DNA of 64,000 nucleotides from a virus: positions 45,391 to 109,390 of the IMG/VR virus record IMGVR_UViG_3300045988_169928. One strand, given 5' to 3'. Shown here piece after piece: positions 3,501 through 60,809 of the stretch; within the stretch, counting starts at the first letter, position 1, and every line of letters starts with the position of its first letter. The notes beneath the pieces are model-generated. The model did no database searches. It was not told the DNA's origin and was given only the letters and a program-made list of their open reading frames with translations. The position numbers were made by a program, and so were the translations under genes.

Positions 3501-5006
3501 ATTATCCGGGGTAAACGTATCTAGATTGCCACCACCAACAGGGCGAGTATAGGTTACTGTTTTACGTGAAGTAAAGCTAACCCCATTAACCACCTTAACA
3601 GGTTGGTTAATCAGCTCATACTTACTACCGTCACCCTTATAGTAGTGACCTTCATTGGTAGTAGTTCCTGTATCGTTAGCAATTCGTACCCTTAAATTAG
3701 TTGTCGAATCAGTGGCAATCGAATAACCTTGAACATATGCTTGACCCTTATCTACATCTAACAAAATCTTGTTAGCGTCCATTGGGTCTTGAGCACCCTT
3801 AGTTGAATCAGAGTTTAAGTGAGGGTGAACCTCAAAGCCTTCTGTTCGGAAAGACCCTGACTGGTCATAAGTCCGCTTAGCTAAAATCTTGGTGATATTA
3901 GTGTAGTCTGGACGAACCTCACTTTGGTTAATAACGTTATCTTGGAATACAACGAAGTCAACGGCTGAATTATCATTATAGGTTAATACCACTTGATAAT
4001 TCAAACGGTCAGCCCCAGCTAAACCATTAGTAACCGTACCCGGGGTATCATCTAATAAATCCTTATCATCGGCACTAGTAACAATCGTTTCATTTAATGC
4101 TAAACCAATTGTTTCCTTACCAGTCCCGGTAATGGAAAATGTTTGTTCATCAAATTCACGAACTAGCCCACCTAACCATACTCGACCAGCGGTAACTTTG
4201 TAATTCTTAACCTTCTCTGTGCTAGAAGCAGTGGTTGTGTCCTTACTAGAAATTACATAAGGCTTTTCGGTTGTTCCTTCCACAACCATTGGGTTATTAA
4301 TTACAACCCCTACAATGGAATTTGAGTTGTCATACCCCGCATTAATATATAATGCTAAGTCTGTATTACCAGAAATCAGGGTATCGAACACAACAACCAC
4401 TTTGTGTGCAGTAGTAGTATTAATGTTTACCTGATTATTATTTGAATCAATGTTGTAGTTCGCACTCGCCATATCTGTTAATGACGAATTAAGCATTGCT
4501 ACTCCATCAAGTGTCCACTTCTTTAAAGTAAGTTGAGAACTATCAAAGTCCAGATTTAACTTATCTAGAATACCCGTAGTCTTGGTAACGTTAAGGGCAA
4601 TAGTTAGACCTAAGCCCTTAGTAACATTAACACTGAAACCCATTGCTGATTGGTCTGTGCTAACGTTAGCCGCACTGGTAAAGTTAATGTTACCCTTAGC
4701 TACATAATCAGTCGTAGAAAGGGTTGCATTAGTAGCACTAAGAGTGGCGACACTAAATAGGTTTTGACTATTACTGGTAGAAGAAGCCGTAGTAGCTACC
4801 GGTACCACCTGCATACCAGAAACTACCGCACCCTCGGCAAACACGGTTGATCCTAGCATATTTAACTGGTCATTTTTAATTGATTGTTCTTCTAATAACT
4901 CTTGGGAAAGGGCGGGGCGTCCCGGACGAAATAGCACCTCGCTAAAACGCTTTGCCCGATTAAATTTATTATTGTAAGGCAAAACGCTTGTATCAATTGT
5001 TGCCAT
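525..5006 (-). CDS. large tail structural protein (1,493 aa), candidate tail fibre / host-specificity or baseplate protein
   Basis: Long uninterrupted ORF directly downstream of the tape measure gene. S/T/N/G-rich beta-rich composition typical of fibre or adhesin proteins. No catalytic motif recognised. Confidence 0.55.
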   Translation of the reverse strand: MATIDTSVLPYNNKFNRAKRFSEVLFRPGRPALSQELLEEQSIKNDQLNMLGSTVFAEGAVVSGMQVVPVATTASSTSNSQNLFSVATLSATNATLSTTDYVAKGNINFTSAANVSTDQSAMGFSVNVTKGLGLTIALNVTKTTGILDKLNLDFDSSQLTLKKWTLDGVAMLNSSLTDMASANYNIDSNNNQVNINTTTAHKVVVVFDTLISGNTDLALYINAGYDNSNSIVGVVINNPMVVEGTTEKPYVISSKDTTTASSTEKVKNYKVTAGRVWLGGLVREFDEQTFSITGTGKETIGLALNETIVTSADDKDLLDDTPGTVTNGLAGADRLNYQVVLTYNDNSAVDFVVFQDNVINQSEVRPDYTNITKILAKRTYDQSGSFRTEGFEVHPHLNSDSTKGAQDPMDANKILLDVDKGQAYVQGYSIATDSTTNLRVRIANDTGTTTNEGHYYKGDGSKYELINQPVKVVNGVSFTSRKTVTYTRPVGGGNLDTFTPDNVTYIRQVYDNTNQYTAGVDFTYVNNVIHWGQDLSGKPLAGANVPNQGQSYTVVYDYSTNAVQGTDYTVVSDGGTTYIDIDDSNGAKPVAGSTIIVSYVYFEARIDMIRITMDNSNPFKVIEGQPAPLASVTPPVVNDPYTLELGYVLIYPNSHNAVFTMQTVTRQTFETLQQWGRRLTNTEYNLAIANMNQTVARSEDPSLMKDVLSDSFNTINNRDDENSTVAYDFENGEILLPSQAMADLTPNVNFDSSQVAIKGSLVTPPYHEEVAINQPISTGTTNVNEFNIFSANGTLTIDPASDNWIDTDSTTVTRETDAGKVSLNKWWYHTNGDLAVGRTGKTQSYADAISQQYQYSNLQGINWINEGQQTGYMLTDGGSTTTESAIEYIRQRTISFVAQNLPAFSDGYKITIDGVAVLDPTPASDDYKGTNGAFKTNANGEIRGTFTIPGGVIRCGTRTVKIIDNANDQASTNYIAQGTLKTTENIIEKRVYSVDIVDPLAQSFTIGETRQLSSVDLYFYKKADKSDTAHTSDLIVQIRELSDDGYPNNVVRTSVTLTPDQIQVSDDGSLGTRVTFTDSVTLTGNRGYAIVLISDSNAYEVFSATKGQKVVSAGTSATVYNTNPNAISNKDPNATGKNVQISNTVTVSVGDTLTSAPNSNGVMFISNNAQTWTADGTSSIKFAVNVCKYQQNGEILFDPIVIADWVKSSETWIKDLGDNLDGKSSTNKNRLTALDRLAALTSYLTYQNTSMNWYIRVLQGDSSTYTGASVSTALANCPWLALPVNNNNQAMPSATSTDGVPAVTSDDSIQTVDGEVISFKNTFAMQLKADFNSDDYIAPVLTTEDLSLVAVLTGKAASYESINVDESGDAAFNYVKLQYDAYIPEVGTALPQVNPMYSVDGGTTWYNFPSGGGASSTTTKTNATSSTPTSTKAQTNYFTRYVYEAVVPTATDQNHLATQFKVRLYLQSPNNFRTPRVRKLSCYLQYDPSKKVS

Positions 5007-5050
5007 TAATTTTAGTCCTTTCTATAAGGTTTGTTCTACTTTAATATAGT

Positions 5051-5395
5051 CTAGTGTTCCTCATTGACTACTTGTAGTTCTTCTTGATCGGTCTTTTTTC
5101 CATACTCAAAAATCTTCTTGGGGTTAAAGCCGTCCCAATAATCAATAGGGTTGTTATCCTTGTCCACAACCTTAACTACCGGGAATGACATTGCATTATA
5201 ACGGGTCTTTAACTTATCTACCAAGTGTTCCCGATAAGCAACCTTGTCCGGGTCATCAGTCGTGAAATCAGCTAGATTAGGCTTTGATTCATCACCATAG
5301 TAGTTAGTAGCAACAGCGGACTTCATGCCCCGCAACAGGGCCATCGTACGCATACAATTAGAACAGTCTGTCTTTTCATAGATTACAAAGTGCAT
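5051..5395 (-). CDS. glutaredoxin/NrdH-like thioredoxin-fold protein
   Basis: N-terminal FVIYEKTDCSNCMRTMALLRG (CxxC in the canonical position after beta1). A later FPVVKVVD resembles the cis-Pro loop region. Confidence 0.5.
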   Translation of the reverse strand: MHFVIYEKTDCSNCMRTMALLRGMKSAVATNYYGDESKPNLADFTTDDPDKVAYREHLVDKLKTRYNAMSFPVVKVVDKDNNPIDYWDGFNPKKIFEYGKKTDQEELQVVNEEH

Positions 5396-5407
5396 TCTAG
5401 TTCCTCC

Positions 5408-8400
5408 TTAATGTGAGTAGTAGTCTAACATTATCTGTTGTTGGCTATTATTAACCCACGCATTAAATGTATCGTTAATGATACTATCTATAATATCATT
5501 TTTATTCCGGCTTTGAACGGCTTGTGACGTATCTATTTTAACTTTTATTTTCGGAGCATTTCTCTTTACCCTATGAACAACGCTATTAGCTTGGTTAAGG
5601 GTTGTGTAACGAGTCTGCAAAGCCCTCAAGTCAAGCACAGATACTGGGGCACTTTCTCGGCTAGTACACATACCTTGAATAGGGCCTGTCATACTCCCCC
5701 CGGTAGCATGAGTTACTAAGCCCCCATTAGCATAACCTCGGGTAGGGCCAGAAGGCGACCAACCAGCGTGACCATAGAGATAGCTGGCCCAGTTAGCAAT
5801 GTTAAAGAAAGCATAAAGTTGATCAACCCCGGAAAGGATATTATCGTGACCCTTAACTTTATACTTGTTAAAGGTTCCTTGAATCATCTGTAATAGCCCT
5901 TTAGCCGGGTCACCATTAGCTGAATTAACATCTTGAATTTGTTGAGTAATTGTTTGATCATAGTTTGATTCACCAGCAATTAACTTCATTAAGTTTTCTA
6001 GCTGTGAATCACTAATGTCAACCCCCATTGCCTTAGCAACTTCCTTGGCCTTCTTTAACCAGTATTCCTTTGACTTAGTTGCCCCATCATTGGAAACGTC
6101 ACCAGCAGTCTTAGAATCACTTGAACCATTCTTGGCCGCATTCTTAACTTTCTTATATATCTCGTTGAACCACATTCTCAAATGTTTAATTAATTGCTTT
6201 TGAGAAGCATTAACATCTTTGTGTTTAACACGATATACGCCTAGCTCGGACAGAAAATGTAAAATCCCGTCCTTAATACTAGTAAGAATACTTTTATGCT
6301 TAGCTGACTTTTTACGTGGTGTATATGCTTGACTATTTTGTGTACGTGATTGTGTACGTGATTGTGTACTGGTCATCTTGGCTTTGTTATCCTTGTCTTT
6401 GGTACTTGCCTTAGCATTGCCTGACATTAATAACAAACCAGTTCCAATCCCAACCCCTATACCAACAATGGTACCAACTTTACCTGTCTTAGGCATTTTA
6501 GACAGAACCGAAAGCCCAGATTTAGCAACACTCTTTATACCAGCCCCCATTGTCGCCATTGTACCACCTTCAATAGCGGCATTGATAATACCATCACCAG
6601 CTCCCATCAAGGCACTTCCACCAATAATTCCCATTGCACCTATCTTTGGGTGAGAATTGACAAAAGAACTTAGATTACGTCTTAAACCATCTAGTGATTG
6701 GGACGCTTTAATTTGTGATGATTGAATTGCTTGCTGTTGGGAGCGAATGGAGCTAGTACCAGTCTTATGATACTTCTTACTATTTACCCCTTTACCTTTA
6801 GTCTGTTTCTTAACGTTAGCACGGGTAAACTTGCCATCAGCATACAACTTGACTAATGAATTAGCCTGTTCATATGATAGTGAGTTTCCAGACAAAGTTA
6901 CCAAGTTTTGAGTAGTAACTGCAATTGCCCCGGACTTGCTACTGGTTTGCTGTCTAGCAGTCCGATATAAGTTACCAATAGGTGTCTTGTATAGATAAGG
7001 GTCTGACTTAGCCCGTTGTGCAGTCTTTAAGGCTACCATATTACCGGATTGATTATACCCAGTAAAGTTCTTGTTATCTAACCATAATGATAACTGTTGG
7101 TTTTGGTTATTAGCATTATTAGATACATTAGCTAAACCAGAATAGGCTTGGGCACCCGCACTACCTTGCCAAGAAGAACCAGTCTTACTCATCATTGACT
7201 GGAAACCAGCAATATTAATCTGATCATTAGTGGTCAACTTACCACTAGTTGCCGCTGTCTGATACATACTAGATAAGGCTTTTAATTGGGAATCAGCCTT
7301 CGCACTAGTATGAGAATTGGTTAAGCTATTCTGAATTGCGTCTGCTAAACGTTCACTATCACTTGCTGACAAGCCTTGCGTATTAGTAAGCCCAGCCACA
7401 CCTAATAAATTAACAACTGTATCGTTACTTGCCCCGTTTGTAAGAGCCAAAGCTCCCCAAGTGTTAGTAAGACGAGAAATAGACTTGTTTGATAAATTAC
7501 CTTTACCAGTATTGCGAGTATACGCCCCTAAATAAGCTGAACTTTCTGATAAGTCCATTCCTAACTTATTATTACCCAAGGTGTTGACAATGCTGTTATC
7601 ACCACCGCCCCGTGCATACATAGCACCGGCAATATTGTTAAAGTTAGTAAGACGGGCATTACTACCTTGTGATACATAATAAGGGCCAGCAATTAAAGCG
7701 GTTCTAACTGCTTGACGAATTAAGAAAGAATGGTGATTGTGGATATACCCAGCAATAGAATCATTGCTAGGTAATACCTTAATGGTATCTTTGGTATCAG
7801 TATTATTAGTAACATTATCAATACTGGTCTTAGCGTGAATTGCTTCACCAGTCCTAGTAACCGCTTCTTGAGCTTGAGTTAGCCGATTAGACAACTCATC
7901 TAGATACTTACCACTCTTTGATAAGTTATTTAATTGCTCCCTAATTCCTGCTAGGGTGTTTACATCATCGACACTTAAACTATCTTGGCCCTTAATTTGA
8001 TCTTGTCGAGAACTTAATTCGTCAATCTGGGATTGAATGTTATTCCGTTGATCAGTTACTTGGCTATCTAAATCAGTTATTTTTTCTCGGGTATACTGAT
8101 TATTTGATACATACTCCTGATACTTTTGGTAAGTAACAACCCCAGAATCGACACTCTGATTCCAACGATTAGATTGAGTTGTTGATCTTAAAACGATATT
8201 CTTAACTTCTTTACCTAATTCAGAATTAACAAAATCGTTGGCTTGTTGTTGATCAGCATACTCTGAACTCTGATATACCTTTGATGAAGATAGATTAAAT
8301 GACTGAATATCTTGATATTTATCACTGTTGGCTAAGGAATTAATTTGACCAATTCCTTGGGTAGCTTTATCTAAGGCGTCAACCAATTGTTGATAAGCCT

Positions 8401-35915: not shown

Positions 35916-36728
35916 ATGGAAAACAAATTACAACTATTTGATTTCAAAGGGCAACAAGTCCGCACAGTGATCATTGACAATGAGCCTTACTTCGTTGGTA
36001 AGGACGTTGCAATGATTCTTGGATATAAAGATTTAAGCCGTGCTCTTAATCAGCACGTAGAAAAAGAAAGCCGCAAGTCCTTGTCCCTCAAGGCTTCGGG
36101 CGATTCGTACCCTAGCCTATGGGAAGGCAAAAACGATTTTTCAAATAAGATAGTAATTAATGAGTCGGGAGTTTATGATTTGATTTTTAATTCCCAATTA
36201 CCGAAAGCTCATGAGTTCAAACACTGGGTCACTAGCGAAGTCCTCCCATCAATTCGCAAGCACGGTGCCTATTTAACGCCAGACAAGATTGAGGAAGTCT
36301 TGTTGAACCCAGATACTTTGATTAAACTTGCAACAGAACTCAAGAAAGAACGTGAAGGGCGTGTGTTGGCTGAACAAAAAATCCAACAGGATCGTCCAAA
36401 AGTCTTATTCGCTGACGCAGTATCAGCAAGTGACACGCCTATTCTAATTGGTGAGTTAACAAAGATCTTAAAGCAAAATGGGATTGAGATTGGACAGAAC
36501 CGATTGTTTGTTTGGTTAAGGAGTAAAGGCTACCTAATCTCACGGAATGGTACAGACTACAATACACCAACACAGAAAAGCATGGAATTAGGTCTATTTA
36601 AGATTAAAGAACGCACCCGTGTTTCTAGTGACGGTAGTGTTAAGATCACTAAGACGTCAATGGTAACGGGTAAAGGTCAGCAATACTTTGTTAATAAGTT
36701 TTTAGGCGAGAAATATAGTATCAAGTAA
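35916..36728 (+). CDS. antirepressor (Bro-N domain + KilA-C/ANT C-terminal domain)
   Basis: FDFKGQQVRTVIIDNEPYFVGKDVAMILGY (Bro-N). C-terminal RPKVLFADAVSASDTPILIGELTKIL...FVWLRSKGYLISRNG (KilAC). Confidence 0.8.
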   Translation: MENKLQLFDFKGQQVRTVIIDNEPYFVGKDVAMILGYKDLSRALNQHVEKESRKSLSLKASGDSYPSLWEGKNDFSNKIVINESGVYDLIFNSQLPKAHEFKHWVTSEVLPSIRKHGAYLTPDKIEEVLLNPDTLIKLATELKKEREGRVLAEQKIQQDRPKVLFADAVSASDTPILIGELTKILKQNGIEIGQNRLFVWLRSKGYLISRNGTDYNTPTQKSMELGLFKIKERTRVSSDGSVKITKTSMVTGKGQQYFVNKFLGEKYSIK

Positions 36729-37490: not shown

Positions 37491-38105
37491 ACTTTAGTAT
37501 GCTATTATAATAAATGTAAACTTGAAGTGGGTGAATAAGGGTCTTGCAAACCCGCCCCTCATGATTACCTGTAAAGCACCTAAGACGTGGTTAAATGGTA
37601 GCTTAACTATTTCAATTGGTAACAGGTAATAGTGTTACCAACTAGAGAAAAAAATCTAGGGTGGTGGTAATCATGGAAATTAGCTTGAGGATTTAGGGTA
37701 GCCACGGACTGGCTAACCACAATACTATACCCGTAGTTAAATCGCCTTGAACAAGCGAATGACCCAAAGCGGGAGGTCTCATTAAGGTAGTTACCGATGA
37801 AGCGTGGTAACACGTGTATAACAGTCCAGTGGTGTATGAGTAGCTAACGGTACATAAACAGCAAATTTATGTATATTACAATCTATGCTTACGCTTAGTG
37901 AAAGTTGGTGGGTACCGATCCCAGCCCAGCCTTGGCCATTTGCTATCAGAGCTGTTTGTTGACGAATAAATAGTAAGCCTGATAGGTGCTGTCACCTAAT
38001 AAAGTCTGTTTGCTGATATTCCACGTAAACCAATACGCAAGTTTATAAAAGAAGCTCACTACCCAATATGGGTGGTGGGCTTTTATTGTATATTACAATT
38101 GATAG
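37491..38105 (+). other. 615-bp GC-richer intergenic segment with multiple stable hairpins ending in a terminator-like hairpin (38056-38090); candidate structured ncRNA
   Basis: No credible ORF. 8-bp hairpin TGGTAACA-ggtaatag-TGTTACCA. TTACC-gatgaagcgt-GGTAA. Terminal GCTCACTACCCAATATGGGTGGTGGGCTTTTATT. Confidence 0.3.
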
Positions 38106-38117
38106 GTGGTGAAAAGA

Positions 38118-39038
38118 ATGTCTTTAAAAGATATACAAGATTATTTTACAATTGTAGATGACGCAGGTAGCTTACAGAATTATACAGGCAACCCAGATTA
38201 TGCGTTAGATGATAAATGGAAGAATATCAGCCTAGATGATTTAGGGTTAAATAAAGATATTATTCAACAGGAATTACTTGGTTTAGGGAGGGATTTAGTA
38301 GACCCAGTAACTGGTGAATCCTATTCAGATGAGTTCTATCAGAATATGTTAATTCGGGCAGTCTCACAAACAGAGAAGAAGTTTGACTTGGCAATTCTTC
38401 CTCGGTTACAAGTTGATCGGCTAGACTATCACCGGAATGATTTTAATGCGTTTGCTTATATGAATACAACTTTACGGCCAATTTTGACGGTAAAAGATTT
38501 AACATTGTACTATAACAATCAAACGATTATGCGAGTTCCTATGGAATGGGTCAAGGTTAATAATCGTTCGGGTCAGATTCAGGTTTCTCCTAGTATCTTA
38601 ATGCAAGGGTTAAATACAACCATTAACCCGACTATCTACCCAATCCTTTCTAACCCGTATGGTATGGCTCCAACACCATTCCAACAGATTGAAGTAAGTC
38701 CTCAAATGCTAGGGGTAACATCTGTTGTGGGTATGATGCCGGCTAGTGATCGAATTGGTGAGTTCCATGACTATCAGATTCAGCCAGACGTCCAATCCTA
38801 TGTGGCTAAACTAGCCGCAATTGAAATTCTAGAAAAGTGGGGTCGTAACATTATCGGGGCTGGGATTGCTTCCTATAATGTTTCGATGGACGGAATTTCA
38901 ACGGGAATGAACACCACAGCAAGTGCCGAAAATACGGCTACCACGGCTGATATTAAGTTACTACAATCAGATATGAAATCTTTAGCAGACGGTATCAAAG
39001 CATACTATGGTAACCCAGAAATTGGTTTTTACAATTAA
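38118..39038 (+). CDS. hypothetical (possibly virion-associated) protein whose C-terminal 16 aa are duplicated at the end of the next gene
   Basis: ATG at 38118 with RBS AGGTGGTGA (the track starts at GTG 38106). C-terminus ...LADGIKAYYGNPEIGFYN. Confidence 0.6.
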   Translation: MSLKDIQDYFTIVDDAGSLQNYTGNPDYALDDKWKNISLDDLGLNKDIIQQELLGLGRDLVDPVTGESYSDEFYQNMLIRAVSQTEKKFDLAILPRLQVDRLDYHRNDFNAFAYMNTTLRPILTVKDLTLYYNNQTIMRVPMEWVKVNNRSGQIQVSPSILMQGLNTTINPTIYPILSNPYGMAPTPFQQIEVSPQMLGVTSVVGMMPASDRIGEFHDYQIQPDVQSYVAKLAAIEILEKWGRNIIGAGIASYNVSMDGISTGMNTTASAENTATTADIKLLQSDMKSLADGIKAYYGNPEIGFYN

Positions 39039-39099
39039 AGCTATTGATAAATAAAACAAACTTCTGTATTATTGATGATGTAGATACGGGGGGTTTATT

Positions 39100-40038
39100 A
39101 TGGTAAAACGTAAAACAGATAAACAATTTAAACAAGAGGTCTTTGACCTAGTAGGTAATGAATATACATTCTTAGATACTTATGTTAATACTATGACTAA
39201 GATAAGAGTTAAACATAATAAATGTGGGAATACCTACGAGGTAACACCTGATAATTTTCTACATGGCAATCGTTGTTCATATTGTGCAGGTAATGCTAGG
39301 AAAACAGATAAACAATTTAAACAAGAAGTATTTGACCTAGTAGGTAGTGAATACACATTTTTAGATAAATATGTTAATAGTCAAACCAAGTTAAGGGTTA
39401 AGCATAATAATTGTGGAAATGTTTACAGGGTTATCCCCAATAATTTTCTTAGGGGTAAGCGTTGTTCATATTGTTATGGTAATACTAAGAAAACAGATAA
39501 ACAATTTAAACAAGAAGTCTTTGACCTAGTAGGTAATGAGTATACATTCTTAGATCCTTATGTTAGTAACGAGACTAAGATAAGAGTTAAACATAATAAA
39601 TGTGGAAATGTATATAAGGTAATACCCACTAATTTTCTTAGGGGTAAGCGTTGTCCTTTTTGCACCGACACCCCTAAAGGTGAACTTATTATCATTAAAA
39701 TTTTAGATAAGCTAGGTATTAATTATGATTACCAGAAAACGTTTGATGATCTGAAAGATGATAGGCTTTTATCCTATGATTTCTATCTTCCAGATCAGAA
39801 TATCCTAATTGAGTACCAAGGACTACAACATTACCAACCAATTGATTACTTTGGTGGAGAAACTAAGTTTAAAATCCAACAGAAACATGACCAGATGAAG
39901 TTGAATTATGCTAAAAAACATGGATACAATTTAATCTTAGTTCCATACACAGTAGATACTTTACCTAAGATTATGAAGGATCTGGCCAATGGTATTAAGG
40001 CTTACTATGGAAATCCAGAGGTTGGTTTCTACAACTAA
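39100..40038 (+). CDS. freestanding endonuclease (putative homing endonuclease): 3 tandem zinc-ribbon repeats + C-terminal Vsr/DUF559-like PD-(D/E)xK nuclease domain
   Basis: Three ~63-aa repeats KTDKQFKQEVFDLVG.EYTFLD.YVN..TK.RVKHNKCGN.Y.V.P.NFL.G.RC.YC. C-terminal YDFYLPDQNILIEYQGLQHYQP (Vsr-like D...E.QG.QH pattern). Ends with NGIKAYYGNPEVGFYN copied from the upstream gene. Confidence 0.65.
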   Translation: MVKRKTDKQFKQEVFDLVGNEYTFLDTYVNTMTKIRVKHNKCGNTYEVTPDNFLHGNRCSYCAGNARKTDKQFKQEVFDLVGSEYTFLDKYVNSQTKLRVKHNNCGNVYRVIPNNFLRGKRCSYCYGNTKKTDKQFKQEVFDLVGNEYTFLDPYVSNETKIRVKHNKCGNVYKVIPTNFLRGKRCPFCTDTPKGELIIIKILDKLGINYDYQKTFDDLKDDRLLSYDFYLPDQNILIEYQGLQHYQPIDYFGGETKFKIQQKHDQMKLNYAKKHGYNLILVPYTVDTLPKIMKDLANGIKAYYGNPEVGFYN

Positions 40039-40118
40039 ACGTCTATTTAAGATAAAGTTTGCTAATATAGCTATATTGAAAGTAGTAAATTAAATCACTT
40101 AACAGAAAAGGGGATTAT

Positions 40119-41984
40119 ATGGCAACACTAACTAAATCATCTGAAACGATGAAGTTAATTTATCCTAAGGAAACTAATACACGTCCACACGTTGCAACAC
40201 AATACAATGATAACGCATTAAATAATGTTGCAGGTTCTTCGTCCAAGAATATCTTCCTATTAGGATCAGCAACAGAAGGCAACCCAGATAATATCTATGA
40301 AGTTAAATCATCTTCCCAAGCTCGGGCCATTTTTGGGTCTGGTGATCTGGTTGAAGCAATGGAATTAATCTGGAACCCAACAGGTAGCTACTACCAAAAT
40401 GGTGGGACAATCTATGCACAACGGGTTGAAAATGCAACCCAAGCTCAATTGGTCAAGGGGCCTTTAACTTTTACTTCTACTGTTTATGGGGCAAGTGCTA
40501 ATAAGGTATCTGTTTCATTTAACAAGAACCCTGTATCTGGGGCTTATGATTTCCATGTTGATTATGAACCCAAGATGTATTCCCAAACGTACATGAGTAT
40601 TGGTAATCTCTTTACGATTGGTTATGACCCGACTTCTTCCAATGTAACGGGGGCTGGGTATAAGATTACAGGTGATCTTTCTGGTGCCCAAACCTTTGAG
40701 ATTGTACTGAATACGTCTGGTGCGTCACAACCAGTCCTAACGATGGATTTAACCAGTACCGCTTACAATAACATTGGTAAGGTTATTACAGCAATTAGTG
40801 CATTACCTGGTTTTACCGTTACCACATTAAAGAGCTGTGCTAACATTGATTCAACCACTTTGGACTTGACCAGTGGTAGTGGTTATCTTACTTTGGGGAC
40901 TGGTTCCGCACCAACCACGATTACCGACTTCTATGGTGACTTACTTTACACCACTCGCTATGATGATTATGTAGGTATTAGTGTTAATCGTTTAGGGGCA
41001 CCAACAGGTGTAAGTGCCGAGGCTAGTGGTAGTGACACGGTAGTTACTGCTAATGCACAAGAGATCACTTTTGTACCATTTGACGCTACTAATCTTTCTG
41101 GCGGTAGCGATGGTAATGTACCAGTTTCATGGGCTGATAAGTTCCAGAACGTTCATGAGGTCAATGCTTACTACATTGTTCCATTGACGAGTGAAGAAAA
41201 CATTCACGCCGAACTGAAAGAGTTCTTAAATGAAGAAGAAATTCTTGGCTACAACTACTTTGGTTGGGTTGGTGGTGGATTTAATGAAAGTATGAGCGCC
41301 GCCATCAACCGGCAAACGGCTTTAAAGTCTGATCGTATTGCCTTAGTAGCTAACTCTGGGTATTACAATAGTCTCAGTGGGAAAGTCGTTCACGCACCTG
41401 CTTATCTAATGGCCGCCTATGTAGCGGGGGTTGCTAGTTCCTTGGGTGTTGGCGATTCTGTTACCCACAAATATCTGGAATTAACTAGTCTTGACCAAAA
41501 TTTCAATGGTGATGAATTGAACGCCCTTGATGATAATGGGGTTATCGCAATTGAGAAGGTAGTTAACCGCAACCAATCTGGTGGCTACCGGATTGTCGAA
41601 GATGTTACTACTTACAACTCCACGAATGAACCAGTTAAGAACCTAGTTTCACTTCGGGAAATCACCGACTACTTATTTGATGATCTTCGTATCTATCTTG
41701 AAGATACCTTTATCGGTTCCAGCGTAGTAAATACGACAGGGAGTTTAATCGCTAGTTTTATTGAAGCATTCTTGAAGCAAAAGGTTAGTGAAGGTCTGTT
41801 AGCAAGTTATGATCAGCAAAGCATTACTTGTACCATTGATGGTAATAGCGCCTACGTTGCCTTTAGTGCCGCACCTGCACGTGAAGTACGGACAATTCTC
41901 GTAAGTGGTACTTACACTAACTTCACTAGCACAACTTCTCAAGACAATTCTAATTATACTACCAATAATGGTGTAACTGGTTAA
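40119..41984 (+). CDS. tail sheath-like protein
   Basis: 621 aa. N-terminal NIFLLGSATEGNPDNIYEVKSSSQARAIFGSGDLVEAMELIW fits the sheath N-terminal pattern (VG.A..G....P..V.S...F..FG). C-terminal region conserved-looking. From memory of the P2 FI / XkdK-type sheath family. Confidence 0.55.
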   Translation: MATLTKSSETMKLIYPKETNTRPHVATQYNDNALNNVAGSSSKNIFLLGSATEGNPDNIYEVKSSSQARAIFGSGDLVEAMELIWNPTGSYYQNGGTIYAQRVENATQAQLVKGPLTFTSTVYGASANKVSVSFNKNPVSGAYDFHVDYEPKMYSQTYMSIGNLFTIGYDPTSSNVTGAGYKITGDLSGAQTFEIVLNTSGASQPVLTMDLTSTAYNNIGKVITAISALPGFTVTTLKSCANIDSTTLDLTSGSGYLTLGTGSAPTTITDFYGDLLYTTRYDDYVGISVNRLGAPTGVSAEASGSDTVVTANAQEITFVPFDATNLSGGSDGNVPVSWADKFQNVHEVNAYYIVPLTSEENIHAELKEFLNEEEILGYNYFGWVGGGFNESMSAAINRQTALKSDRIALVANSGYYNSLSGKVVHAPAYLMAAYVAGVASSLGVGDSVTHKYLELTSLDQNFNGDELNALDDNGVIAIEKVVNRNQSGGYRIVEDVTTYNSTNEPVKNLVSLREITDYLFDDLRIYLEDTFIGSSVVNTTGSLIASFIEAFLKQKVSEGLLASYDQQSITCTIDGNSAYVAFSAAPAREVRTILVSGTYTNFTSTTSQDNSNYTTNNGVTG

Positions 41985-44548: not shown

Positions 44549-45676
44549 TTGGAGGCGAAACCAATGAAGTTACTGGTTGCTAGTGATATTCACTTAACTA
44601 ATTACAACGCTTTTAACGAAGAAATTTCAGGCCAACCCCAAACTGGTTCCCGGCTTAACTATCTGTTAAGTGCTTTATCTTATTTTTTCTGTTATGGTCG
44701 AGATCGTGGTATTATGCACTATGTAATTAATGGTGACTTATTTGATAAGCGCCAACGGGATAACCCAGCTACCCTAGCTTATATCCGGGCTTGGCTTGCT
44801 GGCTGTGCGATTAATTTACCTAAGGAAGCGAAGGTATATTTTAATGTTGGTAATCATGACGAGTTAGGACGTGACGTATACCCAAATTCGTTAGTTGATT
44901 TTCCTTACTTAGATAGCCGATTTGTTGTTGTTAATAAAGTTCAGTTGTTTAGTCTGAATGATGATTCTAAATTATTCTTTGTTCCCTACACCGAGAATGT
45001 AGAGCAGAGTAAGAAGGATATTAAAGAATCAATTAAGTACATGAAAGGGCCAACTACTGTCTTTGCACACACTGGTGTTGAAGGCGGTGTCCAAGGACGT
45101 TGGCAACATAGACTAGAGGGTGCTTATAGTTTATCTGATCTAGGATATGACCAACCTAATGTTAAAGCCGTTATCTTGGGACATTATCACAACCGTTACT
45201 TTATTAAGAAACAACCCAAGCCAGCTTGGTATGTTGGAGATTTACTGGGTTTATCTTTTAATGATTTAAATAAAGATGGTAGTGGGGCTGACCGGGGCTT
45301 TGATGAGATTGATACATTAACTGGTAAGCATACCTTTGTTAATCTGTCTAAGCTATACCCTACCTTTAATCAATTTGATTATGATGAAAGCAAGGTATCA
45401 GCATATCAGGAATTAGCTAAGGATAATTACCTCAAGTTAGTGTTTAGTGACAATAATACCCTGTCAGAGTTCATGAGTGGCCCATACAAGGACTTTAACC
45501 AAGCTCATGTACAATTATCTATTAGCCCTGCTAAAACGTCTGAAAAAGCCTTAGACGAGGAATTAGAACACAATGCAAGTGACTATGAATTAGTTAAGTC
45601 CTATTGTGAGGATAAATATCCCGAGGTTACAAAGTCCGCACTCAACTACCTAATGAAAGCAAGGGAAAGTGATTGA
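44549..45676 (+). CDS. SbcD/Mre11-like metallophosphoesterase nuclease
   Basis: LVASDIHL, INGDLFD, NVGNHD, GHYH: calcineurin-like phosphoesterase motifs I-V in order. Confidence 0.75.
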   Translation: MEAKPMKLLVASDIHLTNYNAFNEEISGQPQTGSRLNYLLSALSYFFCYGRDRGIMHYVINGDLFDKRQRDNPATLAYIRAWLAGCAINLPKEAKVYFNVGNHDELGRDVYPNSLVDFPYLDSRFVVVNKVQLFSLNDDSKLFFVPYTENVEQSKKDIKESIKYMKGPTTVFAHTGVEGGVQGRWQHRLEGAYSLSDLGYDQPNVKAVILGHYHNRYFIKKQPKPAWYVGDLLGLSFNDLNKDGSGADRGFDEIDTLTGKHTFVNLSKLYPTFNQFDYDESKVSAYQELAKDNYLKLVFSDNNTLSEFMSGPYKDFNQAHVQLSISPAKTSEKALDEELEHNASDYELVKSYCEDKYPEVTKSALNYLMKARESD

Positions 45677-52300: not shown

Positions 52301-53065
52301 ATGAAGTTTGAACTTAAAGGATATGTTTTTGAATTTAAGCCCGTTAAACGTAGTGAGATTATTGATTTAATGATTAATTACCATTATCTACACCGGAAGG
52401 TTGCTACTAAGTATGCTTATGGTTTGTTTGCAGATAATGAGTTAAAGGGAATGATTACCTACACAGCTCCACGATTAAGTCTTGCTCGTTCTATTAGTGA
52501 AGAGGCAAATCAAGATAACACCTTAGAACTTTCCCGATTGTATATCAAGGACGAGATTTCTCAAAATGTTCCTAACATTACTTCCCGCTTTGTGTCTTGG
52601 ACTTTACGTGAACTCAAGAAGCAAGGTAATTGGTTTATTATTTCGTTTGCTGATTCTAGTATGGGCCATGTTGGGAGTATCTACCAAGCAACCAACTTTC
52701 TTTATTGTGGGACTACTAAAAGTGGTATGTTATGCTATAATGGGCCTTTCAAACAAGGTGGCACATGGGTTAAGGGGGTTCATTATCGGTTTTTACTTAT
52801 TCGGAGTATCAAGCATAGGTATATCAAATTTGTTGGTGATCGTCGCTTTCAAAAGGGGGCTAAAAAAGACCTCAAGCTGGATATTGTCCCTCACCCTCAT
52901 GGACTTGGCGCCCATTATGAAGTTGGAGATGTTGAAACTCGCTTCATTAAGGATCGAAAAACAGGCCGTATCTATACCGAAGCACAGTTACTTAGATCTT
53001 TCCCGGATTACGACTGGGATAATCAAGACTGGGGAATAGAGGATATTAATACACCTAATAAGTAG
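52301..53065 (+). CDS. hypothetical protein (weak GNAT/Mom-like resemblance, speculative)
   Basis: 254 aa. ...FADSSMGHVGSIYQATNFLYCG is faintly reminiscent of acyl-CoA-binding motif A of GNAT-fold proteins. Confidence 0.5.
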   Translation: MKFELKGYVFEFKPVKRSEIIDLMINYHYLHRKVATKYAYGLFADNELKGMITYTAPRLSLARSISEEANQDNTLELSRLYIKDEISQNVPNITSRFVSWTLRELKKQGNWFIISFADSSMGHVGSIYQATNFLYCGTTKSGMLCYNGPFKQGGTWVKGVHYRFLLIRSIKHRYIKFVGDRRFQKGAKKDLKLDIVPHPHGLGAHYEVGDVETRFIKDRKTGRIYTEAQLLRSFPDYDWDNQDWGIEDINTPNK

Positions 53066-53076
53066 GGGGTGATATA

Positions 53077-54363
53077 ATGACAAAACGTAAAACAGATGAG
53101 GAGTTCCAGCAAGAAATTTACAGTCTAGTAGGCGATGAATACACATTTCTAGATAAATATGTTAATGCAAGGACAAAACTAAGGGTAAAACATAACGAGT
53201 GTAATTTTGTATATTCCGTTTCTCCCCACAACTTTTTAACAGGCAAACGTTGTCCCAATTGTTTTAAGACACCCAAGAAAAGTGATATTCAGTTTCAGCA
53301 TGAAGTTCATACTTTAGTGGGTGATGAATACACATTTTTAGATCCTTATGTTAACAATAAAACAAAGCTAAGGGTAAAGCATAATGTATGTGGAAATGTC
53401 TATAAAGTTAGGGCTTCATCTTTTTTAGATGGTAGTCGTTGTCCATATTGCGCAGGACTGGTTAAGAAAACAGATAAACAGTTCAAACAAGAAATTTACA
53501 ATTTAGTAAATGATGAGTACACATTCCTAGATTCTTATGTTAATACTAATACCAAGTTAAGGGTTAAACACAATAAATGTGGGAATGCCTATGAGGTTAC
53601 ACCCTCTAAGTTTTTATCTGGTGAGCGCTGTCCTTACTGTGCAGGACTTGTTAAGAAAACAGATACCCAGTTCAAACATGAAGTTAACATTTTGGTGGGC
53701 GATGAGTACACATTCCTAGATAGATATGTTAATGCTTATACAAAAATTAGGGTTAAACACAACAAATGTAATTTTATATATTCTGTTGCTCCTACTAATT
53801 TCCTTAGGGGTAGTCGCTGTCCTCATTGCTATCTAGTTAATAAATCAAAGTCGGATAATCTCTTTAAACAGGAGGTTTCTAGCCTTGTTGGCGATGAATA
53901 CACAATATTAGATACTTATACTAATGCGGAATCCAAGATTAGGTTAAGACATAATAAATGTGGAAATGTTTATAAAACTCGACCTCGTACTTTTCTTGAA
54001 GGGTATCGTTGCCCATATTGTAATAGTCCTAAGGGGGAAACTGTTATTACTAAGCTGTTAGATACTTTTAGTATTGATTATGAGTATCAAAAAACCTTTG
54101 AGGATCTAAAAGATAAGTCATATTTGTCTTATGATTTCTATATTCCAGACCAGAACATCTTAATTGAATATCAAGGGATTCAACATTATCAACCTGTAGA
54201 CCTTTTTGGTGGAGATGATAGATTTATTAATCAACAAAAGCATGACCAGATGAAGTTAGACTATGCTAAAGATCATGGTTATAATTTAATTGCTGTTCCC
54301 TACACAGAAGATACTTTCTCTAAGATTAAAAAGTATCTGACTAAGCATGGACTAAAGAAGTAG
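53077..54363 (+). CDS. freestanding endonuclease paralogue: 5 zinc-ribbon repeats + Vsr/DUF559-like nuclease domain
   Basis: Five repeats of K.D.QF..E...LVGDEYTFLD.YVN..TK.RVKHN.C...Y.V....FL.G.RCP.C. C-terminal YDFYIPDQNILIEYQGIQHYQP. Confidence 0.65.
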   Translation: MTKRKTDEEFQQEIYSLVGDEYTFLDKYVNARTKLRVKHNECNFVYSVSPHNFLTGKRCPNCFKTPKKSDIQFQHEVHTLVGDEYTFLDPYVNNKTKLRVKHNVCGNVYKVRASSFLDGSRCPYCAGLVKKTDKQFKQEIYNLVNDEYTFLDSYVNTNTKLRVKHNKCGNAYEVTPSKFLSGERCPYCAGLVKKTDTQFKHEVNILVGDEYTFLDRYVNAYTKIRVKHNKCNFIYSVAPTNFLRGSRCPHCYLVNKSKSDNLFKQEVSSLVGDEYTILDTYTNAESKIRLRHNKCGNVYKTRPRTFLEGYRCPYCNSPKGETVITKLLDTFSIDYEYQKTFEDLKDKSYLSYDFYIPDQNILIEYQGIQHYQPVDLFGGDDRFINQQKHDQMKLDYAKDHGYNLIAVPYTEDTFSKIKKYLTKHGLKK

Positions 54364-59636: not shown

Positions 59637-60809
59637 TTGAGAAGAAAAACAAATGATCAGTTTCAACAGGAAGTTTACGATCTTGTGAGAGATGAATATA
59701 TATTCTTAGATACTTATGTTAATAAACGTACAAAAATTAAAGTTAAACATAACAAATGCGGTCATATCTATAAGGTAACTCCTGGTGACTTTCTTTGTGG
59801 TAGGCGCTGTCCTTATTGTTTTGGTAATTTAAAAAAGACAGACGCTCAATTCAAACATGAAGTTTACACTTTGGTAGGTGATGAATATGCTTTCTTAGAA
59901 CCATATGTTAATAATAAGACTAAAATTAAGGTTAGGCATAATAAATGTGGCAATATCTATGAAGTAAAGCCTGATGGTTTCTTGCGTGGTAATCGTTGCC
60001 CATACTGTGCAAGTACAGCTATAAAAACAAATGAGCAGTTTCAACAGGAGGTTTATGATCTCGTTGGAGATGAGTATTTATTTTTAGAATCCTATCAAAA
60101 AGCACTTACAAAAATTAAGGTAAAGCATAATAAATGCGGTAGTATCTATAAAGTCAAGCCTAGTGATTTTCTACATGGCGAACGTTGCCCATATTGTAAT
60201 GGTAATGCTAAGAAAACAGACGTCCAGTTTAAAAAGGAAGTTTATAATCTAGTTGGTGATGATTATAAATTCCTAGATGTCTATGTTAATAATGTTGCTA
60301 AACTTAGGGTAAAACACAATAAATGTGGAAACATTTACGAAGTTAGACCTAGTGATTTTCTCCGTGGCACCCGTTGTCCTTACTGTAATACCCCTAAAGG
60401 TGAGGTTATCATTAATAAAATTCTAAAGTCATTAGGGACCAAGTATGAGTATCAGAAAACGTTTGATGATCTTGTAGATAAGTCCTATCTTTCTTATGAT
60501 TTCTATATCCCCAGTCAATCCATCTTAATTGAATATCAAGGGATTCAACATTACCAGCCTACTGATTATTTTGGTGGAGAAGCTACCTTTAAGAGACAGC
60601 AAAAACATGATAAGATGAAGCTAGACTATGCTAAGTCTCATGGTTATAAATTAATTACTGTACCATATACGGAAGATACTTTCTCTAAGATTAAGGGGTA
60701 TTTGATTAAGCATGGGTTAGCTGATGAAAATACTTCGGTAGATACAGATACACTCCATCGACTGTTTGACGAGAATAAAGAAGTGATGGATTGGCTAAAG
60801 GACAAGTGA
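59637..60809 (+). CDS. freestanding endonuclease paralogue: 4 zinc-ribbon repeats + Vsr/DUF559-like nuclease domain
   Basis: TTG start with RBS AAGGTGA. Four repeats. C-terminal YDFYIPSQSILIEYQGIQHYQP. Extra acidic tail. Confidence 0.65.
   Translation: MRRKTNDQFQQEVYDLVRDEYIFLDTYVNKRTKIKVKHNKCGHIYKVTPGDFLCGRRCPYCFGNLKKTDAQFKHEVYTLVGDEYAFLEPYVNNKTKIKVRHNKCGNIYEVKPDGFLRGNRCPYCASTAIKTNEQFQQEVYDLVGDEYLFLESYQKALTKIKVKHNKCGSIYKVKPSDFLHGERCPYCNGNAKKTDVQFKKEVYNLVGDDYKFLDVYVNNVAKLRVKHNKCGNIYEVRPSDFLRGTRCPYCNTPKGEVIINKILKSLGTKYEYQKTFDDLVDKSYLSYDFYIPSQSILIEYQGIQHYQPTDYFGGEATFKRQQKHDKMKLDYAKSHGYKLITVPYTEDTFSKIKGYLIKHGLADENTSVDTDTLHRLFDENKEVMDWLKDK

Follow-up and report, generated by a model that had tools for sequence, protein, structure and literature searches.

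In a virus genome recovered in IMG/VR (record IMGVR_UViG_3300045988_169928, positions 45,391 to 109,390; the 64,000 nt analysed here are called the window), the last 21 codons of a gene for a head-to-tail adaptor protein are present twice. One copy closes the adaptor gene itself (upstream copy, U). The other closes, in frame, the open reading frame (ORF) of a putative homing endonuclease that follows it (downstream copy, D). Comparison with alleles lacking the endonuclease indicates that U was imported together with the endonuclease and that D is the displaced resident end. The best explanation of the whole, homing included, is that the genome belongs to a Hopescreekvirus-like Limosilactobacillus phage whose adaptor gene has received a 1000-bp mobile cassette within its 3′ end; we give this reading a probability of about 85%.

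The cassette would consist of three parts. The first would be an adaptor gene end with its stop codon, derived from a diverged phage lineage and specifying the same peptide in other codons. The second would be a spacer of 61 nt supplying a promoter-like site and a ribosome-binding site of its own, and the third an endonuclease gene carrying three zinc-finger repeats and a Vsr-like nuclease, minus its last ~11 codons and its stop. On insertion, the resident adaptor end would have been pushed downstream, where in-frame translation makes it the final 21 residues of the endonuclease, which also takes its stop codon from there. The adaptor would thereby be kept intact without intron or intein.

Two copies of the adaptor gene end

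The adaptor gene ends in ...DMKSLADGIKAYYGNPEIGFYN and the endonuclease ORF in ...IMKDLANGIKAYYGNPEVGFYN, each followed by a stop codon; in fuller form these ends read ...LLQSDMKSLADGIKAYYGNPEIGFYN and ...LPKIMKDLANGIKAYYGNPEVGFYN. The two genes are separated by the 61-nt spacer and lie in different reading frames. A repeat search returned them as a direct repeat of 68 nt (38972-39039 and 39972-40039; 75% identity, offset exactly 1000 nt), in which coding similarity opens at an ATG located 21 codons ahead of either stop (38973 and 39973). A first-pass annotation of the window, made from its letters alone, had already pointed to a repeated gene end of 16 codons. The repeat is confirmed at both ORF ends by the sequence, by the repeat search and by tblastn within the window (E = 1e-7, with no comparable match elsewhere in it), and is five codons longer than had been reported.

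The two 21-codon tails agree at 18 residues and, of their 63 nt, at 46. The annotation had described the copies as differing almost only at third codon positions; this holds for 12 of the 17 differences, the remaining five being at first (four) and second (one) positions. The comparison of synonymous and non-synonymous change that it had proposed gave, by the Nei-Gojobori method, a mostly synonymous divergence (synonymous differences, Sd = 13 per 12.5 sites; non-synonymous differences, Nd = 4 per 50.5 sites). Conserved degenerate codons are spelled differently in 11 cases out of 17, about the number to be expected, by a rough estimate rather than a computation, if synonymous codons were chosen at random. 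The longest in-register run of identity between U and D is 8 nt. Selected recoding, as a reading of this 'more than saturated' synonymous divergence, was considered and rejected: a proportion of synonymous differences (pS) of ~1 is an artefact of fractional site counting over 21 codons.

The repeated segment is short, and one could ask whether the likeness of the two ends is a coincidence or convergence of low-complexity sequence. The tblastn value speaks against this, and so does the fact that D and its flank are collinear with, and near-identical to, the single tail of five endonuclease-free alleles. As these relatives hold exactly one copy at this place, synteny excludes chance, and we attach practically no weight to it.

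The gene that carries U encodes a 306-amino acid (aa) protein. In phmmer searches it matched chain b of PDB 8q01, the 'Adaptor protein / neck protein' of Staphylococcus phage phi812 (E = 4.7e-47), so that, per this solved structure, the family is that of head-tail adaptor (neck) proteins. Both PHROGs (phrog_772) and RefSeq label the gene 'tail fiber protein', an annotation that is widespread in Herelleviridae (this gene and 750+ homologues). Since the phi812 alignment extends to within 3 residues of the C-terminus, the repeated tail is a conserved part of the protein. Among adaptor homologues, 128 pairs differing by at most 3% over residues 30-285 showed 8.4 times more differences per site in the last 21 residues.

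Endonuclease-free alleles and the native copy

Over most of its length the window is ~91-97% identical to Lactobacillus phage LfeInf (Herelleviridae, Hopescreekvirus), whose gp032 is the orthologue of the adaptor (98.4% aa identity). In LfeInf the adaptor gene has no endonuclease behind it but a single tail, and the tail sheath gene begins 80 nt further on. Four more alleles, on the metagenomic contigs L007, L009, L026 and L027, are likewise free of endonuclease, with a single tail followed by the sheath gene. All five thus run from one tail straight to the sheath gene, as the first-pass annotation had predicted for relatives lacking the endonuclease, and none carries two copies of the tail. 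The endonuclease is present in the window and in three further contigs (L005, L006 and L025). Its presence is therefore variable at one fixed locus in genomes that are otherwise near-identical, as is usual for homing genes.

Alignment with LfeInf delimited an insertion of 1000 bp (Table 1) containing, in this order, the replacement tail, its stop, the spacer and the endonuclease ORF minus its own last ~11 codons and stop. On the left side, 3 mismatches were counted in the 577 nt from 38400 to 38976 and 16 in 38979-39035; on the right side, 5 were found in 39978-39987 and then 2 up to the stop codon. Beyond D, the resident intergenic region follows and the flank is collinear with LfeInf.

To compare the tails we used their last 15 codons plus stop (48 nt, called segment B). 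The D copies (window, L005 and L025) form one group with the tails of LfeInf, L026 and L027, all mutually 0-2/48 nt apart, and the U copies of the four carriers lie 7-10/48 nt from this resident group. In the window itself, U differs from resident-type tails by 9-10/48 nt (10/48 for LfeInf, L026 and L027), compared with 1-2/48 nt between D and these same three. Behind each of the four U copies comes the same spacer, and then the same endonuclease. Because D groups with the empty alleles and U travels with the endonuclease in four carriers, the sequences identify the copy on the endonuclease as the resident tail, now displaced, and the copy that closes the adaptor today as the imported one. The heading of the first-pass annotation, according to which the endonuclease carries the recoded copy, thus has the polarity reversed: it is U, on the target gene, that diverges, and D that is resident (0-2/48 nt). 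The body of that annotation, where the endonuclease brings in a replacement gene end, fits. Its choice of the adaptor gene as homing target is supported by the local divergence and by the endonuclease-free alleles at the same site, and the import by the joint occurrence of diverged tail, spacer and endonuclease in four independent alleles. A donor-type tract beside the insertion, with segment B linked to the cassette in 4/4 carriers, is also the mark of co-conversion. As for the copies being 'synonymously recoded', different codons do specify the same peptide, but selected recoding is needless: the distance of the imported tail from the resident one (7-10/48 nt) is about that of the naturally diverged L007 and L009 tails (7-12/48 nt), so that ordinary divergence of the donor lineage under purifying selection suffices as an explanation.

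Direct repeats in the same orientation could also stem from a local tandem duplication of the gene end, with divergence in place and an endonuclease landing later between the copies, and none of the alleles records how a first duplication came about. We regard such a history without import as very improbable. The adaptor body is 99% identical to that of LfeInf (pS 0.037) right beside an upstream tail in which nearly all synonymous sites differ (12 of 12.2); diverged segment B and spacer are common to four carriers whose backgrounds are up to 4.7% apart; and an endonuclease-free allele with two copies is missing among the five.

Another alternative is that the 1000 bp are a group I intron, or the endonuclease part of an intein, and that splicing joins the adaptor body to D. 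In Staphylococcus and Enterococcus phages, annotations associate relatives of the endonuclease with group I introns, and the family prototype I-Bth0305I is intron-encoded (PMC3239194, PMC2677866). However, a search of 38000-40600 against Rfam at E up to 1 yielded two chance hits and no intron. The upstream tail keeps 18/21 residues of the conserved adaptor C-terminus, unlike a read-through into an intron, and it is followed by a stop codon, the spacer and then the endonuclease's own ribosome-binding site and ATG. L006, moreover, lacks a downstream copy, which leaves only the upstream tail to serve as the functional end. Splicing appears to us a shade more improbable still than duplication in place.

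The other carriers are informative about the fusion itself. L005 and L025 have the same fused layout as the window, with the same junction (...CCT AAG ATT / ATG ...). L006 has the cassette-type tail and spacer and an orthologous endonuclease (89% aa identity), but this one keeps the family's native end ...SKIKKYLTRHGLNL and its own stop, followed by ~50 nt of unrelated sequence. The cassette-type tail being the only tail of the gene in L006, the imported tail is sufficient for the adaptor.

L006 also underlies the most serious alternative, in which an intergenic endonuclease of the L006 type would be ancestral, the tail would have been replaced by co-conversion, and the duplication would be a one-off product of faulty repair at TATGAA, without role in mobility or immunity. 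L006 is indeed a clean free-standing form, and the native C-terminus is found in nearly all family members. The junctions of the insertion share the microhomology TATGAA, and at this point the end of the native endonuclease, AAGATTAAGAAG, is similar to the target, CAGATATGAAAG, which is consistent with a microhomology-mediated origin of the fusion. Yet the fused form occurs in three backgrounds with three combinations of the five-codon patch described below (window, L005 and L025), which makes it the majority of the carrier alleles seen, and the window allele was found on 11 metagenomic contigs. Being present in several backgrounds and patch combinations, the fused form has spread and recombined and is no dead end. 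Two other members of the family, furthermore, likewise read into displaced target sequence. On these grounds we consider a mere by-product unlikely and retain the mobile cassette, duplication included, as the preferred explanation.

Table 1. Positions of the features discussed (position 1 is the first nucleotide of the window).
Feature	Positions	Strand	Basis or remark
Head-to-tail adaptor (neck) protein gene, target, 306 aa	38118..39038	+	phmmer to PDB 8q01 chain b; phrog_772; LfeInf gp032
1000-bp insertion relative to endonuclease-free alleles	38973..39972	+	LfeInf alignment; 1000-nt repeat spacing
Upstream tail copy (U), present functional end of the adaptor gene	38973..39038	+	ATG, patch 38976-38990 (KSLAD), segment B
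Segment B of U, cassette-linked, GIKAYYGNPEIGFYN and stop	38991-39038	+	groups with U copies of L005, L006, L025
Cassette spacer, 61 nt	39039..39099	+	near-identical in all four carriers, absent from endonuclease-free alleles
Homing endonuclease ORF, 312 aa	39100..40038	+	ORF list; phrog_559, phrog_9084, phrog_7140 endonuclease families
Three tandem 189-nt repeats, CapR / treble-clef zinc-finger modules	39112..39678	+	repeat search; Pfam PF21817 CapR, PF14311
Vsr-like (EDxHD-type) nuclease domain	39670..39972	+	predicted fold
Downstream tail copy (D), endonuclease C-terminus	39973..40038	+	ATG, patch 39976-39990 (KDLAN), resident-type segment B 39991-40038
Tail sheath gene, right flank of the insertion site	40119..41984	+	phrog_279; sub-threshold Pfam PF04984 (29.3 bits; gathering score 31.4)
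Mom-family DNA-modification gene	52301-53065		Pfam PF25680, E = 4e-31
Paralogous endonuclease, five zinc-finger repeats, native end ...KIKKYLTKHGLKK and stop	53077..54363	+	shows where the native C-terminus lies
Paralogous endonuclease, second read-through fusion	59637..60809	+	LfeInf gp005 counterpart

The endonuclease and its candidate homing site

The endonuclease ORF has no stop codon of its own and ends at the displaced stop of the adaptor gene. Its zinc-finger repeat array is presumed to be the DNA-binding part. In the structural model the C-terminal domain has the fold of a Vsr-type nuclease, and it is this fold alone that places it in the family. Across 30 homologues, no variation was seen at D (in SYDFY), E (IEYQG), H (QHY) and H-D (KHD); going by their order along the sequence, which is the expected one, these residues are candidate equivalents of Vsr Asp51, His69 and Asp97 and of the invariant Glu of the family. 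Neither phmmer nor a 30-sequence profile matched the domain to PDB sequences, no Pfam match was obtained, and NCBIfam gave noise only. Relatives in GenBank are annotated as homing endonucleases, some of them as 'group I intron-associated VSR homing endonuclease'. Going by the modelled fold, its mode of action would be that of an EDxHD/Vsr-like endonuclease of the free-standing kind.

About 100 of 120 endonuclease homologues end in ...KIKKYL.KHGL plus 0-3 residues. The adaptor tail on the endonuclease is thus a secondary fusion that replaced the last ~11 codons. In the model, this fused tail carries on the last helix and then becomes disordered, its last ~12 residues being of low confidence. 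As a more remote variant, the tail may be functional on the enzyme, for example in recruiting it to the virion neck.

Compared with L005, the zinc-finger region (39200-39600) is mosaic, with 68-90% identity per 50 nt; identity is 96-100% over the spacer and the first 100 nt. This suggests that DNA-binding modules have been exchanged between carrier alleles, perhaps in step with the variability of the target patch.

The spacer contains a G-run Shine-Dalgarno sequence (39088-39093), 6 nt ahead of the endonuclease ATG, and a sigma-70-like TTGATA-17-TATTAT at 39044-39072, which is conserved in L005 and L025 and reads TACTAT in L006. The latter is a consensus match only, in AT-rich DNA where 22 such sites were seen in the region for 13 expected; the cassette may bring its own promoter. 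An exact-pattern search for the spacer found none in IMG/VR, and the JGI metagenomes gave two unrelated chance matches (L021 and L022).

The first five codons after the ATG of either tail form a patch of their own. The version AAA TCT TTA GCA GA(C/T) (KSLAD) belongs to the U copies of the window and L006, to the D copy of L025 and to the single tails of the endonuclease-free L026 and L027. The version GTG GAG CTT GCC AAT (VELAN) belongs to the U copy of L025 and to the D copy of L005. KDLAN is spelled in two different ways, one in LfeInf and the other in the D copy of the window, and further protein variants of the patch exist among near-identical adaptors. The patch is likely the zone of homing crossovers where target variants accumulate, and would mark the homing site. 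In this scheme, the enzyme would cut endonuclease-free alleles in or beside the patch, 21 to 16 codons ahead of the stop. The break would be repaired from a cassette-carrying genome during co-infection, with crossovers in and around the patch, and neither copy in a carrier genome would rebuild the full target. The identical runs of at most 8 nt between the copies should guard the cassette against deletion by repeat recombination.

What the comparisons show is the anatomy of the locus, the variable presence of the endonuclease, the tie between imported segment and cassette, and the nuclease fold. From them we infer cleavage, with a position near 38985, where the first-pass annotation had placed it, as well as the cleavage resistance, the extent of the site, the immunity of carriers and the order of events. 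The differences of U from alleles of the cleavable type begin at segment B, and those of D are confined to the 9 nt or more ahead of its ATG. Should neither copy be cut, the recognition site would span both sides, that is ~30 bp or more. Such a long site would fit the three DNA-binding modules of the enzyme and the ~60-bp footprint of I-Bth0305I (PMC3239194, PMC2677866). The core motif of the latter, TTxG-N6-CxAA, was not found in the LfeInf target in a search by eye.

The LfeInf patch contains a perfect palindrome, TTAGCTAA (L001:4083-4090), which is broken in both copies of the window (U, 38982-38989, TTAGCAGA; D, 39982-39989, CTGGCCAA). It cannot be a required core of the site, as the empty alleles L026 and L027 (TTAGCAGA) also lack the palindrome.

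Several points weigh against the mobile cassette as we describe it. No endonuclease-free genome with a cassette-type segment B was found, which leaves the donor lineage without a candidate. The patch is not specific to the cassette but shuffled among upstream, downstream and endonuclease-free positions, so that the left end of the imported DNA is ambiguous (38973 or 38991). The D patch of the window, AAG GAT CTG GCC AAT, differs from LfeInf at 5 synonymous positions, and we found no endonuclease-free allele carrying it; an exact-pattern search for the predicted pre-insertion junction GATATGAAGGATCTGGCCAATGG had no match in IMG/VR. Judging from the sequences, either the fused or the L006-type form could be the older one. 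Sequence-profile searches fail to tie the nuclease domain to I-Bth0305I, which only the fold does. Finally, the enzyme could be inactive, the homing site being deduced solely from comparative anatomy.

Related endonucleases and known systems

The window holds two paralogues of the endonuclease. Both had been said to end in KHGLKK, which is correct for 53077..54363; the other, 59637..60809, ends in KHGL plus a 29-residue extension, namely ADE followed by NTSVDTDTLHRLFDENKEVMDWLKDK and the stop (last 78 nt, ~60729-60809). Over its last 26 residues the protein matches, with 100% identity, the C-terminus encoded by a SocA/Panacea antitoxin-like gene in the L. fermentum phage JNU_P1; the nt differences are few and located at third codon positions. 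In JNU_P1 this gene is intact (185 aa; MN830252 49550-50104; L023:1027-1581) and lies upstream of a Doc toxin gene. No upstream copy of the SocA-like end is present in the window. The extension looks like the footprint of an earlier target.

A further case was found in L024 (ENA ERZ28646928 scaffold_57), where a 515-aa endonuclease homologue follows a gene for a GH25+LysM endolysin. It is flanked by a direct repeat of ~48 nt, 84% identical, in terminator-proximal intergenic sequence (~2420-2467 and ~4010-4059), and its last ~13 codons come from the downstream repeat copy. The layout is that of the window, except that the duplicated target is non-coding. These three independent cases (adaptor tail, SocA-like end of 59637-60809 and L024 intergenic segment) raise the idea that 'bring your own gene end' is a general insertion strategy of the zinc-finger/Vsr-like endonuclease family, a tentative generalization that we hold to be possible but on balance doubtful. 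Read-out through a displaced target copy may be common in the family: ~12% of the 120 homologues carry C-terminal extensions, as yet without explanation.

In a distant clade of large Herelleviridae-like phages from IMG/VR (adaptor ~62% aa identity), this gene end is again affected: L019 carries at 4480-5634 a zinc-finger and Vsr-like endonuclease, 29-34% identical, directly after the orthologous gene. Relative to the endonuclease-free L012, mismatches in the body of that gene number ~1 per 25 nt and rise to 13 in 40 nt over its last ~14 codons. This endonuclease has its own stop and there is no duplication.

Two other places of the window differ from LfeInf. The Mom-family gene sits 11 nt ahead of the paralogue 53077-54363, and LfeInf lacks this entire ~2.2-kb module, with the small ORF gp010 in its place; a flanking repeat at this paralogue (52946 and 54380; 72% over 32 nt) was too weak to interpret. 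The segment 35769-36741 has no BLAST match to LfeInf at this place and holds a Bro-N/ANT antirepressor-like gene (35916-36728). At that position LfeInf has gp034 ('DNA helicase'), and L020, L025, L026 and L027 carry Bro-N/ANT or AntA/ANT variants.

The endonucleases of the mobile ORFs (mORFs) of fungal mitochondria belong to the LAGLIDADG or GIY-YIG families. These elements, whose products are termed simply 'endonucleases' in the work that describes them, form 'gene hybrids' with a C-terminal duplication, in atp6 of Allomyces macrogynus and in atp6, atp9, cox2 and nad3 of Glomus sp. (PMC3630166). The order of parts is the same as here: gene core, foreign C-terminus in phase, endonuclease ORF, displaced native C-terminus. 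As in the window, the native copy is near-identical to that of an element-free relative, the inserted copy is diverged in DNA but conserved in protein, and the endonuclease ORF is sometimes in phase with the displaced end (PMC3630166). Unlike the mORFs, the present element resides in a phage genome and encodes a Vsr-like endonuclease with zinc-finger repeats. This endonuclease has its own start after a stop and a spacer, takes its stop codon from the displaced end, and the duplicate is 21 codons long. We treat the resemblance as convergent architecture, not as homology or membership.

The free-standing endonucleases of T4-like phages (Seg, Mob, Hef) practise 'intronless homing' with co-conversion of flanking markers (PMC2988022). 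As in our case, they are stand-alone genes beside essential phage genes, variable in presence, with flanking donor sequence co-inherited. The review of these systems lists intergenic insertions, overlaps with neighbouring ORFs and gene splitting (nrdA, gene 60, gene 43) and makes no mention of duplication; a replacement gene end with read-through into the displaced end is not described in it (PMC2988022). Full-text literature searches, of incomplete coverage, returned no phage case of this layout.

With respect to the EDxHD/Vsr-like family and its prototype I-Bth0305I (PMC3239194, PMC2677866), the enzyme described here shows no detectable profile match. It carries three CapR/treble-clef zinc-finger repeats instead of NUMOD/helix-turn-helix modules, and its gene lies outside any intron or split intein. 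CapR repeats are known from the homing endonucleases of ICP1-like vibriophages, as DNA-binding domains that recombine and vary in number (PMC10448857). There too, the CapR modules are repetitive and the genes stand at genetic-exchange boundaries beside essential genes, but the nuclease domains are T5orf172 (GIY-YIG-like) and that study reports no duplication of a target end (PMC10448857).

Besides self-splicing introns or inteins and gene splitting, the arrangement would give a homing endonuclease a third way to occupy an essential phage coding sequence while leaving it intact, a solution that evolved independently in fungal mitochondria. The allele series, with four carriers, five empty alleles, a shuffled patch and a cassette-linked 15-codon segment, would amount to a natural map of the homing site and of the immunity determinants. 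Insertion of such cassettes would also account for the mosaic hot spot that the Herelleviridae adaptor has in its C-terminal tail, and the 'tail fiber' annotation of this gene is corrected. If the insertion strategy were general, a diverged copy of what lies downstream of the cut, together with the read-out through the displaced resident copy, would let a cassette occupy coding sequence without intron or intein, with homology arms abutting the break on both sides and the cassette splitting its own recognition site. C-terminal extensions on phage endonuclease ORFs may serve as footprints of past target genes.

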